Assembly: GCA_021414205.1 (NCBI GenBank)
Contig: JAIOOW010000003.1
Span: 300,365 to 364,364, forward strand
Length of the DNA: 64,000 nt
Reading direction: 5' to 3'
Source: Candidatus Anderseniibacteriota bacterium
GTDB lineage: Bacteria; Patescibacteriota; Andersenbacteria; UBA10190
Shown one piece after another: positions 24,733 to 40,860 of this stretch. Every line of letters starts with the position of its first letter. Positions within the stretch are counted from its first letter, which is position 1. Under the pieces are notes generated by a model. That model was not told where the DNA came from. It made no database searches and saw nothing but the letters and a program-made list of their open reading frames with translations. The translations under genes were made by a program, and so were the position numbers.

Positions 24733-24769
24733 AGAGTAACTATGTTCGAAAGCTGGTATTTATGCAAAG

Positions 24770-24813
24770 AAAAAACCCGCTGGAATGATGTATTTCTACA
24801 CTATTCCAACGGG
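24770..24813 (-). terminator. Rho-independent terminator on minus strand
   Basis: CCCGCTGGAAT..ATTCCAACGGG stem (one mismatch); on the minus strand it is followed by UUUUUUCUUU. Confidence 0.45.
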
Positions 24814-24861
24814 CTACCGCGATTGATAGCATTGAGGGAGTTTGCTGATCAATCAACGATT

Positions 24862-25263
24862 TCAGCGATGGTGGTGATACCCGCCGCGGAATCCGCGAGC
24901 GCCATATGGTTGGTATCCGTATCCGCCGCCGTATCCATAGCCTCCGTAGCCCCTGTTTGAGAGTGCTACAATGGCGGCTGATGTTACGAGTGCTTGACCG
25001 ATTGGCATTGGTCGACCATAGCCTCCGTACCCCATGTTGCCGTAGCCGTATATGGGGCCTGGCGGAACGTATCCACCACTTCCGACATATACGCCGTTAG
25101 GGTACAAGACGCCGGTGACGGATCCATTCGGGCCGTACGATGCTTGCGGACTGGGTGTCCAAGCAGCAGCGCCGTAGCCGCCGAATTGTGCCTTCGCCTG
25201 CTGCGCACTTCCACACAAAATGATCCCAATGGCCATTACAAATAACAAGCTGCACCATCGCAT
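24862..25263 (-). CDS. secreted Gly/Tyr-rich low-complexity protein
   Basis: Signal peptide (MRWCSLLFVMAIGIILCGSAQQAKA). Mature part is dominated by GYG/GGY repeats and ends in GGYHHHR. Confidence 0.6.
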   Translation of the reverse strand: MRWCSLLFVMAIGIILCGSAQQAKAQFGGYGAAAWTPSPQASYGPNGSVTGVLYPNGVYVGSGGYVPPGPIYGYGNMGYGGYGRPMPIGQALVTSAAIVALSNRGYGGYGYGGGYGYQPYGARGFRGGYHHHR

Positions 25264-25365
25264 GATGTGTCTCCTAAAGACAACCTCTGCAAAGAACTTA
25301 TATAGCTACGACGTAGCTAACCGTTCGAAAATTGTACGCCTAATGATGGAAAATGTCAAATCTAT

Positions 25366-25992
25366 TTACCACCACCAGCCCAGGCTGTAGATGCGGTATC
25401 CTGCTCCGGACCATGACCATGGAGCACCAAAGGTGCTAAAGCCTGCGCCGTAATTACCTGTTGTAGTTACGTGGTTATACGTATTTCCTACAAGCATTGG
25501 AGAACCCGAGAACCCAGCACCATAGTTGCCTGTATATGCAATTGATCCAGTGCTGCCCGTATTAAAATCTGGGGCGCCATTAAATGCAGCACCATAGTTG
25601 CCCTTTTCAGCGCTTGAAGAAACAGTACTTGCATCAAAGTCTGCAGGGCCGGTAAACGCTGCGCCGTAATTATCTTTATTTGCTTTATTATCTACTGTCT
25701 TGGTAGAGAATGTAGGAGCTCCGGCAAACGCAGCACCGTAGTTACCTTGCGAAGATGCTTGCTTATTTGGCGTTGTTGCATGAGAAATAGCAGGTGCGCC
25801 GGCGAACCCAGCACCATAGTTTCCTTGATTTACATTGATTTGTGTCGTGGTGAACTCAGGATTGCTTGGAGACGGCCAAAACCCTGCTCCGTAGTCAGCC
25901 TCGCTCGCAAATGAAGCGTTTGGCAAAACAAGCGCAAGTGCGCTAAATACGCCAATTACGGCTATTTTTGACACTGTTAGGGCAATTTTCAT
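25366..25992 (-). CDS. secreted tandem-repeat protein (about 7 repeats of G-NYGA(A/G)F-xGAP, 24-28 aa period)
   Basis: Signal peptide (MKIALTVSKIAVIGVFSALALVLPNASFA). Repeats are each centred on NYGAGF/NYGAAF. C-terminus is SLGWWW. TTGACA-17-TATATT promoter-like sequence and an AGGAG just upstream. Confidence 0.65.
   Translation of the reverse strand: MKIALTVSKIAVIGVFSALALVLPNASFASEADYGAGFWPSPSNPEFTTTQINVNQGNYGAGFAGAPAISHATTPNKQASSQGNYGAAFAGAPTFSTKTVDNKANKDNYGAAFTGPADFDASTVSSSAEKGNYGAAFNGAPDFNTGSTGSIAYTGNYGAGFSGSPMLVGNTYNHVTTTGNYGAGFSTFGAPWSWSGAGYRIYSLGWWW
25392..25902. repeat. coding tandem repeats (about 75-85 nt period) within the NYGA-repeat gene
   Basis: Recurring ..ccgtagtt/ccatagtt.. 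segments on the forward strand correspond to the NYGA(A/G)F units. Confidence 0.5.
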
Positions 25993-26077
25993 AAATTCAA
26001 TATACTCCTATATTAAATATTTGTCAAGTACATTCGTACAAATAAAGAACACCCCATTTGGGCGCCTCTCATGTAAT

Positions 26078-26551
26078 TTATTGTCCCGTCGCAGGTGTTA
26101 TTTTTAAAGGCAAGTTGGTAATAATTCCGTCCGGGCGCAAAACCTGCATATTATATTGCCCTGGCTGAATAGTGGAGATGTTCCAACAGCAATACTCGTT
26201 TTTCCCAGGATCGAGCGTAATGGTATCTGGAGAAAGCGGAATAATATTAAGTTCCGTGTCGCGTATACGTACGCTTACAGTAACGGGACTTGTTACCCCG
26301 TCAGACGTAGTGCCCTGGAGCATGATTAAGTCTTTTGTGGTGTAGTCCGACTTCTGCTTGATTGGAGGATTTTTCTGAGTCGCAAATGATTCTCGCACCA
26401 CGGTTCCTATTCGTAAGTCAGAAAACACTGGGCCGTTGTATGCAGAATTTTGCACCGTCGGCGCTTGGAGCGGGCGTTGGAACGCATACCATACTCCCGC
26501 AATAAAGATGATGATTACAGTGATGATGATGGTGATAAGTTTCTTGTTCAT
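26078..26551 (-). CDS. membrane-anchored hypothetical protein (157 aa)
   Basis: N-terminal TM (LITIIITVIIIFIAGVWYAF), beta-rich extracytoplasmic remainder with a CC pair. Co-directional with the two secreted repeat proteins downstream. Confidence 0.55.
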   Translation of the reverse strand: MNKKLITIIITVIIIFIAGVWYAFQRPLQAPTVQNSAYNGPVFSDLRIGTVVRESFATQKNPPIKQKSDYTTKDLIMLQGTTSDGVTSPVTVSVRIRDTELNIIPLSPDTITLDPGKNEYCCWNISTIQPGQYNMQVLRPDGIITNLPLKITPATGQ

Positions 26552-26552
26552 A

Positions 26553-27542
26553 TTATTTTCTTTTTATTACTTTTTTCACGGCAGCTTCTATTGCTGGCGC
26601 ATCCATGCGATATTTTTTGAGGAGTTCATCAGGTGTTCCGGATTCGCCAAAGCTGTTGTGCATGCCGACGAACTCAATAGGCACCGGAACCGTTTGCGCT
26701 ACGACTTCCGCAATAGCACTCCCCACTCCGCCCATTATTTGATGTTCTTCAACAGTGACGATTGCCTTACACTTCTTTGCTGCTTTTTCGATTGCGTCAT
26801 GATCGATTGGTTTAATGCTTGGCATATTAATCACCTCGCAAGAAATTCCCTGTTTTTCTAATTCTGCAGCTGCTACTAACGCAGAGTGAATAATTGGTCC
26901 GGCACCGATAATGGCAACATCTGTCCCCTCCCTGAATATTTGAGCCTTACCGATTGCAAACGGAGTGTTTTCTGACGTGAATTTTGGCGTGGCATTTCTT
27001 CCCAGGCGGATATATACCGGACCTTTTGCAGTAATTGCCGCATGGATTGCTTTGCGCGCTTCCTCTGCATCGCACGGTACAAGCACTGTCATTCCTGGTA
27101 ATGTTCTAGTGAGCGCAATATCCTCCATCGCCTGGTGAGTCGCTCCATCAGGTCCTACAGAAATGCCTGCATGCGCGCCGATAAAAATAATATGAGCCTC
27201 GTTATAGCATGCGGAGATGCGTATTTGGTCCCAGTTTCTTCCTGGCGAAAATACGGCGTACGTTGCAACGAATGGAATTTTCCCATTGAGCGCCAAGCCC
27301 GTTGCAACCACCGCCATGTTTTGTTCTGCTACTCCCATTTCGATAAATCGATTTGGAAATGCGTCTTTAAATCCTTGGCTTCGCGTAGATTCTGTTAAGT
27401 CTGCGCACAGTACCACGACGCTTTCGTCTTTTTTCCCAGTTTCGACAACACCGATGCCGTATCCGTCTCGAGTTGCAGCCATGGGCACGTCTTTGTGCAA
27501 TGTTGATGGCGATAAATGTGCGTCTTTTGAAAAATTGCTCAT
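26553..27542 (-). CDS. tktB: transketolase, C-terminal (pyrimidine-binding) subunit
   Basis: FIEMGVAEQNMAVVATGLAL, HAGISVGPDGATHQ; start overlaps the stop of the transketolase N-terminal subunit gene. Confidence 0.9.
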   Translation of the reverse strand: MSNFSKDAHLSPSTLHKDVPMAATRDGYGIGVVETGKKDESVVVLCADLTESTRSQGFKDAFPNRFIEMGVAEQNMAVVATGLALNGKIPFVATYAVFSPGRNWDQIRISACYNEAHIIFIGAHAGISVGPDGATHQAMEDIALTRTLPGMTVLVPCDAEEARKAIHAAITAKGPVYIRLGRNATPKFTSENTPFAIGKAQIFREGTDVAIIGAGPIIHSALVAAAELEKQGISCEVINMPSIKPIDHDAIEKAAKKCKAIVTVEEHQIMGGVGSAIAEVVAQTVPVPIEFVGMHNSFGESGTPDELLKKYRMDAPAIEAAVKKVIKRK

Positions 27543-28411
27543 ATGTCGGATGGAGTTATTTTATCGCCAAGACTTCTTAGTTGCTTGAGCGCTTCTTGTG
27601 CTTGCTCTTTATTGGGCGGATTGCCATGCCACTGGTATTGGTATTCCATAAAGTCCACGCCTTTTCCCGCAATCGTATGCGCGATAATGCATACCGGCTG
27701 CTCAACAATCGCCTTTGCTTCATTGCATGCAGAAATTATTTCCTCAAAATTGTGCCCGTCGATTTCAATGACGTGCCATCCGAATGCTTCATATTTTTCT
27801 TTAAAATTTTCTTTGCGCATCACGCTTTCTGTTGGACCATCTATTTGAATATTGTTTCTATCAATGATTGCAGTTAAATGCGCCAGCTTATAGTGGCCCG
27901 CAAACGCAACTGCTTCCCACGTGGACCCTTCATCGTGTTCCCCGTCAGATAACAGCGCATATGTTTGGTATGTTTGATTATTGATCTTCCCTGCATAGGC
28001 AGCTCCACATGCAATGCCTAATCCTTGCCCTAAGCTTGCCGCAGAACTTTCAATTCCGGGAGTCGTTAATCTATCAACGTGGCCCTGCAGTCTTGTCCCT
28101 AATTTCCGTAACGTCTTTAATTCTTCAACGGGAAAATATCCTGCGCGCGCAAGTACGGCATACCATACCGGAGCGGTGTGTCCGCACGAGATATGTAATC
28201 GATCTCGGTCTGGATCGTGCTTTTTATCTGGGCTGGTATTTAAAACATTGAAGTACAATGCTGTTGCAATGTCTGCCAAATCTAACGGGCCTGCGCTGTG
28301 GCCCGAACCGGCCTCTACCAACATCGCAATAATATCTTTCCTGATAGTATTTGCCATGCGCTCTAGATCTTCGCGTGTTGTGAGCTTTTGCATTGCTCGT
28401 AAGTATACCAC
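27539..28411 (-). CDS. tktA: transketolase, N-terminal (TPP-binding) subunit
   Basis: GHSAGPLDLADIATALYF, GHTAPVWYAVL, LSDGEHDEGSTWEA. Confidence 0.9.
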   Translation of the reverse strand: MVYLRAMQKLTTREDLERMANTIRKDIIAMLVEAGSGHSAGPLDLADIATALYFNVLNTSPDKKHDPDRDRLHISCGHTAPVWYAVLARAGYFPVEELKTLRKLGTRLQGHVDRLTTPGIESSAASLGQGLGIACGAAYAGKINNQTYQTYALLSDGEHDEGSTWEAVAFAGHYKLAHLTAIIDRNNIQIDGPTESVMRKENFKEKYEAFGWHVIEIDGHNFEEIISACNEAKAIVEQPVCIIAHTIAGKGVDFMEYQYQWHGNPPNKEQAQEALKQLRSLGDKITPSDI

Positions 28412-31518: not shown

Positions 31519-32073
31519 CTACTCTTGCTCGCATCGTATTTTTACGAGCATTCGCGGGTTCCTTCGCGGATCCAGAGATCCTTCGGCGGCGTCGATTGCG
31601 AATAATATGAGCCAGAGCAAAGCACATCCAAAAGCAGATGTTGTCAAAGGTAGGTTTGTGCTATGCCAAGCTACTGGCAAAGTGCTAACTACTGCGTATG
31701 ACAGCACTGGCACGATGAACAAGTTGTGAAACCATTGAGCCGGAAGATTGTTCCAGCTGTTCGATTCTCTACCATTTTTAAGGCCAACGTACTGGATAAC
31801 AATCCCGGCAACGAGCGCCAAGACGGCGACCGTTACGTGATACCAGGCCTCTGTATGGACTCCCTTTGGAAGTTCATGCTGGCATATGCCGGCAACAAGT
31901 CCGTAATAGAGCGCCAGCGAAGCGTCACCAGGGCAGCTGGAGAAGGCCACGTCATAGACGACGCCTTCTGTCTTCCATCTGATGAGGTACAGTAATCCTG
32001 TCGTAACGCAAATCGTTGCAATCATCACAACCCACCATGGCGCATGGGTAGCAATCCAAATGCTTGGCAACAT
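31519..32073 (-). CDS. hypothetical multi-pass membrane protein (184 aa)
   Basis: Four to five hydrophobic helices; AAGGAG RBS 8 nt before ATG. Confidence 0.6.
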   Translation of the reverse strand: MLPSIWIATHAPWWVVMIATICVTTGLLYLIRWKTEGVVYDVAFSSCPGDASLALYYGLVAGICQHELPKGVHTEAWYHVTVAVLALVAGIVIQYVGLKNGRESNSWNNLPAQWFHNLFIVPVLSYAVVSTLPVAWHSTNLPLTTSAFGCALLWLILFAIDAAEGSLDPRRNPRMLVKIRCEQE

Positions 32074-32254
32074 GACTAGCTCCTTATTGATATGGGAATG
32101 TTCGGTCGTTTCGCGAGTACGTATAAATTAGTATATAATAGTACTATTGTCAAGTTTTAAAAGATCAGGAGTGGTCGTAGGGTGTAAGTAGCCTGGTGTG
32201 TAGAGATTCTGTTATGAGTGCTCTTTTTCAAACCCTGGAAAGCGAGTGTGTGGC

Positions 32255-40783: not shown

Positions 40784-40860
40784 CTTGACAATTGATAATA
40801 AGTGTACTACATTCACATGTTGGATGGTTTGATTGGTTGCTCTTTACAAGGAGAAGGCTC

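Follow-up and report, generated by a model that had tools for sequence, protein, structure and literature searches.

We report a pair of adjacent genes, here called B and C, which encode related, putatively secreted proteins and have so far been found only in Candidatus Andersenbacteria-type genomes. They lie in a stretch of 64,000 nucleotides (nt) from a Candidatus Anderseniibacteriota bacterium (contig JAIOOW010000003.1, positions 300,365 to 364,364 of the forward strand), referred to below as the window, where they follow a third open reading frame (ORF), A, on the minus strand. The initial annotation had taken all three for one cassette of secreted or anchored proteins. Its three ORFs and their lengths agree with the sequence (Table 1), the cassette does not. 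Gene A belongs with the transketolase gene tktC and has a terminator-like hairpin behind it; in some relatives a V-type ATPase operon splits it from B and C. Since A is separable, and B and C lie side by side with the unit YGAGFxPSP in common, the locus is better described as a B/C pair beside a membrane protein of the tkt operon (one gene plus two). We tentatively propose that B and C are exported in abundance and may self-associate on the cell surface. A Logan contig of 128.8 kb contains the window. Below, homologous loci are numbered L001-L021 and homologous proteins P00xx.

A repeat protein with a 24-residue unit

Protein B contains seven (N/D)YGA(A/G)F units with tyrosines at positions 34, 59, 85, 109, 133, 157 and 181, that is at successive spacings of 25, 26, 24, 24, 24 and 24 amino acids (aa). 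About seven repeats had been counted initially, which stands; the repeat length of 24-28 aa narrows to a spacing of 24-26 aa, and the GWWW said to close each repeat is found at the protein end only. The tetrapeptide NYGA occurs six times, a count never reached by the most frequent tetrapeptide in 20,000 shuffles of the residues (the largest, five, was seen twice). The units are encoded by differing codons and Tandem Repeats Finder detected no DNA-level tandem repeat, which argues that it is the protein on which selection acts and in which the repeat is maintained.

Family anatomy was established on 35 distinct B proteins, the one from the window included. Copy number varies from three to eight units, with one sequence of 74 aa having two. 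A pair of proteins, P0003 (147 aa) and P0044 (106 aa), have identical N- and C-terminal parts with five versus three units and directly illustrate how units have recently been gained or lost. In the family as a whole, 103 of the 122 unit-to-unit intervals measure 22-27 aa, the mode being 24. The consensus 24-mer reads N-Y-G-A-G-F-x-G-S-P-x-L-x-G-x-T-T-x-x-x-(V/I/A)-Y-T-G, and outside the motif L12, G14, V/I21, Y22, T23 and G24 are conserved as well. Because the intervals are regular and conservation reaches past the motif, B would be built of a structured repeat and not of a bare motif. The spacer sequence is conserved between close relatives, and purifying selection acts on the spacers. Most first units (21 of 33) belong to the xPSP type, to which the unit of C belongs too, internal units being GSP or GAP. 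The enkephalin motif YGGF looks similar to YGAGF and YGGGF, which we take to be coincidental.

The mature region of the family holds 5.8% charged and 18.7% aromatic residues, no cysteine, and has a 2P+G value of 0.34; net charge is near-neutral, from -3 to +5. To judge by these figures, the composition of B is typical of self-associating proteins. In all but one of the 35 proteins the chain ends in a tail rich in Trp, Phe or Tyr (e.g. PWYGYGWFRW, RWYW, GWWW or LTFW), the last residue being W, F or Y in 31 proteins and L in three. The sole exception, P0050, stops inside a repeat and looks truncated. We considered an outer-membrane beta-barrel with a C-terminal aromatic beta-signal and rejected it: a barrel of this kind would have overly polar strands, a proline occurs in every unit, no barrel was predicted, and bacteria of the Candidate Phyla Radiation (CPR) are generally thought to have no outer membrane. 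C-terminal sorting signals such as LPXTG, PEP-CTERM and similar ones were likewise dismissed, there being no tripartite tail of transmembrane plus basic segments.

At its N-terminus, B shows a positively charged n-region, a hydrophobic core and small residues at -3/-1 (NASFA|SE), and homologues look alike. This Sec signal layout is visible in B, in C and in most homologues; a subclade of B (P0008 and P0053-P0056) has a much shorter N-terminus. Gathering these traits, we propose a YGAGF-x-x-SP family, defined by an N-terminal signal-like segment, an aromatic C-terminal tail and at least two units [NHY]-Y-G-[AGS]-G-[FY]-x-[GP]-[SA]-P with a spacing near 24 aa. This architecture is seen in B of the window and in a further 34 distinct proteins, tailless P0050 apart, and an exhaustive profile search returned no true B-family member built differently.

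Protein C and its kinship with B

Protein C contains 24% glycine and 12% tyrosine and, as first described, ends in HHHR. Positional homologues were found in 13 other loci. Each of them carries one or two copies of the YGAGF unit directly after the signal peptide, for example GGYGAGFTPSP in L005, followed by a variable stretch rich in Gly, Tyr and Pro and by a cationic tail of His, Cys and Arg. When the B and C profiles were aligned with hhalign, the first unit matched with a probability of 94.7% (E = 6e-8). We conclude from this profile match that B and C are homologous and share the unit YGAGF-x-(P/G)-S-P. Net charge of C ranges from +5 to +9 across its family, and its tails are rich in Arg, His and Cys (HHHR, RHHHCQCGR, CPNCGQRHR, RLRRQK, GGGCTCGHCR, HGRCRR). 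The His/Cys-rich tails in L004, L012, L013, L015 and the window (24862-24900) hint at metal binding besides positive charge.

Nearly all C signal peptides (25213-25263 on the minus strand in the window) have a conserved cysteine in the hydrophobic core, some 8-10 residues before AxA|Q, as in IILCGS, VLCGS or FLCQS. C might be anchored through a lipid or processed by signal peptidase I; the residue at -1 of the lipobox is Leu or Val, which is non-canonical and speaks against a lipoprotein.

Reality and distribution of the genes

Compared with the orthologous locus L005, whose A protein is 96% identical to that of the window, the ratio of nonsynonymous to synonymous substitution rates (dN/dS) was 0.04 for A, 0.09 for B and 0.15 for C, at dS of 0.47-1.8. 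Orthologues occupy the equivalent position in at least 12 species-level genomes, down to about 35% identity. A, B and C are real genes under purifying selection. One might suspect chance or decaying frames or artefacts of composition, given the low-complexity composition, the lack of any database annotation, and a hidden Markov model (HMM) search that also drew three junk translations. This suspicion is effectively refuted by the dN/dS values and the positional orthologues, as well as by conserved promoters and terminator and by the differing codons of the repeat units. The three translations, P0042 (2514 aa), P0051 (1620 aa) and P0059 (660 aa), were discarded as unrelated low-complexity or repetitive sequences.

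All three families are small. Among 5.8 billion clusters, A had 29 matches, each at least 49% identical to the query, and B had 11. A HMMER profile of B run against 1.84 billion representative proteins gave 26 matches, three of them unrelated, leaving about 23 true relatives; the profile of C found nine proteins only. Against Pfam and NCBIfam, A, B and C had no match, just two sub-threshold N-terminal ones for A, and nothing relevant among Fap, TasA, chaplin, rodlin or hydrophobin-like profiles. Searches of PDB sequences with B and with the profiles of A and B returned nothing at E <= 10, and literature searches on the motif and on Andersenbacteria returned nothing on these proteins. A glycine-rich match from the literature, AesB, was rejected as a host Esx effector, unrelated. 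On the strength of these searches, the three families appear undescribed, and the initial statement that the proteins fit no recognised family is borne out: no characterised family was found, and the repeat is conserved under purifying selection in related genomes, in 3-8 units.

For all three families, every source genome that carries a name is of Candidatus Andersenbacteria, a CPR lineage; in the A family some metagenome-assembled genomes (MAGs) are labelled 'Saccharibacteria' automatically. L005, L009, L010, L012, L014 and L016 are titled 'uncultured Candidatus Saccharibacteria bacterium'. For MAGs carrying the A-B-C locus this label is probably wrong, since the identity of their A proteins to that of the window is 41-96%, as it is for MAGs labelled Andersenbacteria.

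Transcription signals of B and C

The promoter TTGACA-17-TATATT that the initial annotation placed upstream of B is indeed there (Table 1). We compared this region in 14 orthologous loci (the window, L002-L005, L007-L013, L015 and L018). In all of them, a TTGAC/TTGC -35-like element and a TA-rich -10-like hexamer precede the B ATG, the latter by 6-8 nt; L004 and L015 have a poor match to a -10. No Shine-Dalgarno sequence was found at usable distance upstream of B in these loci. As the -10 box lies just 6-8 nt from ATG, the B mRNA is probably leaderless across the clade.

Gene C has its own promoter, with TTGACA upstream of C in 14 of 14 loci and a -10-like hexamer in 13 (none at that spacing in L013). 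Single-sequence folds, the basis of the hairpin described here, predict a stem of 5-10 bp at the equivalent spot in all 14 loci, a few to about 13 nt past the -10 box. In the window, this hairpin is weak alone (-7.4 kcal/mol, z = -0.9), and the stems differ from locus to locus (TAGCTAC/GTAGCTA, GTCAGCA/TGCTGAC, GTTGATA/TATCAAC). A conserved GTTCTYT follows, then an AGGAG Shine-Dalgarno sequence (25271-25275) and ATG. Rfam gave no match in the region, and RNAalifold on MAFFT alignments of the C 5' untranslated region yielded no base pairs, the hairpins of the different loci being out of register. The hairpin might stabilise or regulate C from its 5' end, act as a weak terminator of B, or do both.

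The terminator behind C is much stronger, at -25.7 kcal/mol and z = -5.9, and none of 200 shuffles folded as well. Sites of the form TTGACA-N17-TAnnnT are rare in the window, four against 0.39 expected, and the promoters of B and C account for two of the four. The conserved, near-consensus promoters of sigma-70 type together with the strong terminator suggest that the products of B and C are abundant.

Genomic context and the membrane protein A

The gene order rpiB-rpe-tktN-tktC-A-B-C-murB is kept in L001-L005. From A onward, the order A-B-C-murB also occurs in L007-L010, L012, L013 and L015; tktC-A-B-C-murB is found in 12 loci. L011 has the same order with murB unconfirmed. In Rifle-aquifer genomes, a V-type ATPase operon comes after A (L019-L021, L006 and L014; 6598-12468 in L019), with subunits I, K, C and F and the start of subunit A annotated. 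In L018, B and C are adjacent and preceded by the gene for the V-ATPase D subunit, not by A. These arrangements are consistent with insertion of the V-type ATPase operon between A and the pair. B and C are adjacent in 13 loci altogether. Neighbouring genes are tkt, rpe, rpiB, murB and priA, joined in some loci by V-ATPase or Pif1 helicase genes. The B/C pair sits in a housekeeping syntenic block, not in a mobile or variable island.

Gene A starts 1 nt past the tktC stop codon in the window (26549-26555, minus strand) and overlaps tktC by 1-4 nt in other loci (L002 9450-9453, L004 7486-7489, L019 6001-6004). A gap or overlap of this size points to translational coupling of A to the transketolase. 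The initial annotation called A membrane-anchored, which the AlphaFold2 model supports: a transmembrane helix at residues 2-24 precedes an extracytoplasmic beta-sandwich of 7-8 strands (predicted local distance difference test, pLDDT, 83.9). The family alignment shows the invariant motifs FATQKNPPIKQK, CCW and RPD, which are unique to this clade. A Foldseek search of the PDB gave only generic Ig/FnIII-like beta-sandwich matches at TM-scores of 0.3-0.5, among them the carbohydrate-binding domain of Wzt (E = 5e-5, TMq 0.51), an alpha2-macroglobulin MG domain, Caf1M, RbmA and PmoD. Because the scores are just 0.3-0.5, no specific function can be transferred to A. Judging by the model, A looks like a binding module. 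With its transmembrane helix and 7-8-strand sandwich it resembles generic membrane-anchored Ig/FnIII-like modules, but differs from them in having no sequence family match and in its own invariant motifs. The link of A to the B/C pair appears to be positional only.

An extracytoplasmic beta-sandwich coupled to transketolase is an odd partner for a pentose-phosphate operon, and the arrangement is conserved clade-wide. The transketolase itself is split, with separate genes for the N-terminal (27539-28411) and C-terminal (26553-27542) subunits on the minus strand and rpe and rpiB ahead of them; this compact pentose-phosphate operon is kept in all related loci. The other two exact TTGACA-N17-TAnnnT sites of the window lie at 32125-32153 (minus strand) and 40785-40813 (plus strand). 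The former is about 50 nt upstream of an ORF of 184 aa (31519-32073), by its look a multi-pass membrane protein, for which no Pfam match is recorded.

Table 1. Features of the A, B and C region, in positions of the window
Feature	Position	Strand	Description
Gene A	26078..26551	-	ORF, 157 aa, single-pass membrane protein
Hairpin between A and B promoter	26048..26066	-	Terminator-like; -11.4 kcal/mol, z = -2.4
B promoter	25999..26027	-	TTGACA-17-TATATT; -10 box ends 6 nt before B ATG
Gene B	25366..25992	-	ORF, 208 aa, predicted secreted repeat protein
B signal peptide	25906..25992	-	Residues 1-29, read by eye; predicted cleavage SFA|SE
B repeat array	25423..25896	-	Residues 33-190; seven units, 24-26 aa spacing
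B aromatic C-terminal tail	25369..25422	-	PWSWSGAGYRIYSLGWWW; B ends in SLGWWW
C promoter	25331..25359	-	TTGACA-17-TACAAT; begins 7 nt past B stop codon
Small hairpin	25303..25319	-	7 bp, 3-nt loop; near 5' end of C transcript
Gene C	24862..25263	-	ORF, 133 aa, predicted secreted Gly/Tyr-rich cationic protein, ends in HHHR
C single shared unit	25147..25182	-	GGYGAAAWTPSP, residues 28-39; directly after predicted cleavage AKA|Q
Intrinsic terminator after C	24769..24815	-	Strong; long stem and U6, upstream of murB

A tentative model and its alternatives

We infer from the above that B could be the multivalent major component of a surface assembly, with its 3-8 units at a spacing of about 24 residues, nearly uncharged, 19% aromatic and closed by a Trp/Phe/Tyr-rich tail, and that C, with one or two units directly behind the signal peptide, could be a minor component. 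After export, B molecules would stack on or stick to one another by way of the Asn, Gly and aromatic residues that are invariant in the unit. The assembly might take the form of a cross-beta or beta-solenoid fibre with one rung per unit, or of a gel in which the aromatic residues act as 'stickers'; the fixed period, the invariant positions, the low charge and the aromatic tail fit an ordered fibre and also such a gel. C may join the assembly of B through the shared unit, its basic tail tying the assembly to the anionic cell surface, or C may nucleate it. A might dock or chaperone the pair.

A more specific version of the proposal, which we think unlikely, is that B and C form a new type of extracellular fibre, a coat or holdfast and the first such system described in the CPR. 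B would then polymerise through the 24-residue rung as a ladder of Asn, Gly and aromatic residues (NYGAGFxGSPxLxG…VYTG), with the Trp-rich tail capping or anchoring it; the cationic C, which may bind metal, would nucleate or anchor the fibre, and A might be the membrane dock. Such a coat or holdfast could attach ultra-small cells to hosts or to each other.

Several observations weigh against self-association. AlphaFold2 models the curli solenoid well, while for B (alignment of 12 sequences) it yielded no confident fold at a pLDDT of 36.8. The curli-like logic suggested at the outset finds no counterpart in sequence: hhalign of the B profile with E. coli CsgA gave a probability of 0.4%, so that B counts as unrelated, and the Curlin repeat S-x5-Q-x-G-x-G-N-x-A-x3-Q was undetected in B, which has no Pfam match at E <= 1. 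In the neighbourhoods of five B homologues, no dedicated genes for secretion, assembly or cross-linking were found nearby. Each unit of B contains one proline and several glycines, which could equally favour a disordered, non-fibrillar state, and the shortest members (74-119 aa, two or three units) would need to act purely as oligomers. The signal peptides of B and C were judged by eye, and the shared synteny may merely reflect a narrow clade with conserved gene order. Aggregation profiles, computed on an approximate scale, count in favour of self-association: P0004 and P0005 have two hot spots per unit, GAGFxGS and TV[IY][ST]TG, whereas the window's B has fewer, its aromatic tail being a further one.

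The disorder predicted for B by AlphaFold2 is what one would expect if B and C did not polymerise at all and instead formed an intrinsically disordered surface brush or adhesins, whose units would be linear motifs binding an external ligand or A. The Trp/Phe/Tyr tail would hold B at the membrane or wall, the cationic tail would hold C, and the ligand could be a host envelope, peptidoglycan, a glycan or the beta-sandwich of A. The units are indeed short, invariant and multivalent, as linear binding motifs are; A is a membrane-anchored Ig-like module with carbohydrate-binding or chaperone-like structural matches (Wzt, the MG domain, Caf1M); A, B and C share one narrow phyletic range; and CPR bacteria are thought to be episymbionts. 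We nevertheless hold this reading to be unlikely, since independent linear motifs would need neither the fixed 24-aa period nor conserved positions outside the motif, and since A is co-translated with tktC and separable from the pair by the V-ATPase operon.

The strong promoters on both genes, the small, Gly/Tyr-rich and strongly cationic C (+5 to +9), the aromatic cluster ending B in 34 of 35 members and the small membrane protein encoded next door would also suit secreted membrane-active or antimicrobial proteins directed against competitors or a host cell, with A as a possible immunity or handling protein. Parallels would be Trp-rich peptides and the Gly/Tyr-rich cationic peptides of the nematode NLP and caenacin types. 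Such peptides, however, have no need of a near-neutral mature protein of about 180 aa that consists mostly of a conserved 24-aa repeat. Transporter, processing protease or typical bacteriocin genes were not found in the neighbourhoods examined, A is far better conserved than typical immunity proteins and is part of the tkt operon, and the pair sits in a housekeeping block instead of a mobile or variable island; we therefore consider an antimicrobial role quite improbable. A multi-core precursor, cut into several short YGAGF peptides as a signal or in the manner of ribosomally synthesised and post-translationally modified peptides (RiPPs), would explain why a nearly invariant core is repeated three to eight times in varying copy number between more variable spacers. 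Yet the N-terminus of B is of the Sec type and no RiPP leader, no conserved cleavage sites flank the units, the spacers have conserved positions, fixed length and purifying selection, C carries the unit in an unrelated context, and maturase, protease or exporter genes were not found in the neighbourhoods examined. We regard this last option as very improbable, more so than an antimicrobial role. Self-association of B and C at the cell surface remains the reading we prefer, with due reserve.

The CPR (Patescibacteria) make up a large share of bacterial diversity, and little is known about their surface coats and host attachment. Most of their lineage-specific genes are unannotated, and lineage-specific hypothetical proteins are common in CPR genomes. 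The present locus is a compact, well-defined candidate: its two small genes have strong promoters that are conserved, the 24-residue unit is clear, and copy-number variants occur naturally. If self-assembly is true, the short list of known functional amyloid or matrix systems in bacteria would gain an independent family, and biomaterial design a new short repeat. If not, B and C are an ordinary clade-restricted pair of hypothetical secreted proteins.

Comparison with known systems

Among known secreted proteins with short tandem repeats, the Gram-positive wall-binding repeats (choline-binding CW_binding_1, 'YG', WxL and GW) are similar to B in having repeats of about 20 aa rich in Tyr, Trp and Gly, and in some cases a Trp-containing C-terminal region. 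They differ in that B has no Pfam match to CW_binding_1, WxL or GW at E <= 1, the motifs are unrelated and no beta-hairpin superhelix is predicted for B.

Two-component functional amyloids pair a major subunit with a minor or nucleating one, as in CsgA/CsgB, FapC/FapB, TasA/TapA and the short and long chaplins. B is like the major subunits in being made of imperfect tandem repeats, some 20-24 aa long, whose Asn, Gly and aromatic positions are invariant, and in its predicted Sec export and its low charge. The minor protein C next to it has the unit too, along with a charged part that would suit attachment to a surface, so that C may be said to mirror the minor anchoring or nucleating subunits CsgB, FapB, TapA and the long chaplins. 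This is a likeness of logic, not of family. In contrast to curli, Fap and TasA, the five neighbourhoods of B homologues have no accessory genes of the CsgEFG, FapF or SipW type; and unlike curli, the units of B contain proline, AlphaFold2 yields no solenoid and the host belongs to the CPR.

Sticker-and-spacer proteins, of which the GLFG domains of FG-nucleoporins are one example, offer a further parallel. B likewise consists of short aromatic motifs flanked by glycine, with polar uncharged spacers and predicted disorder, and C, rich in Tyr, Gly, His and Arg, would be its natural cation-pi partner. B departs from such proteins in its unit of 24 aa, its fixed period and its conserved non-aromatic positions. 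The histidine-rich proteins of squid beak contain GHGLY and GAGFA pentapeptide repeats, and in the beak peptides added GAGFA copies make the separated phase a hydrogel instead of droplets (PMC6884462). GAGFA is present in two units of B, an analogy of composition and not homology, as B is not His-rich and belongs to a bacterial envelope setting. As far as sequence tells, B and C are members of none of the known bacterial fibre or matrix systems, but they resemble them in combining tandem repeats of aromatic residues and glycine with a partner subunit.

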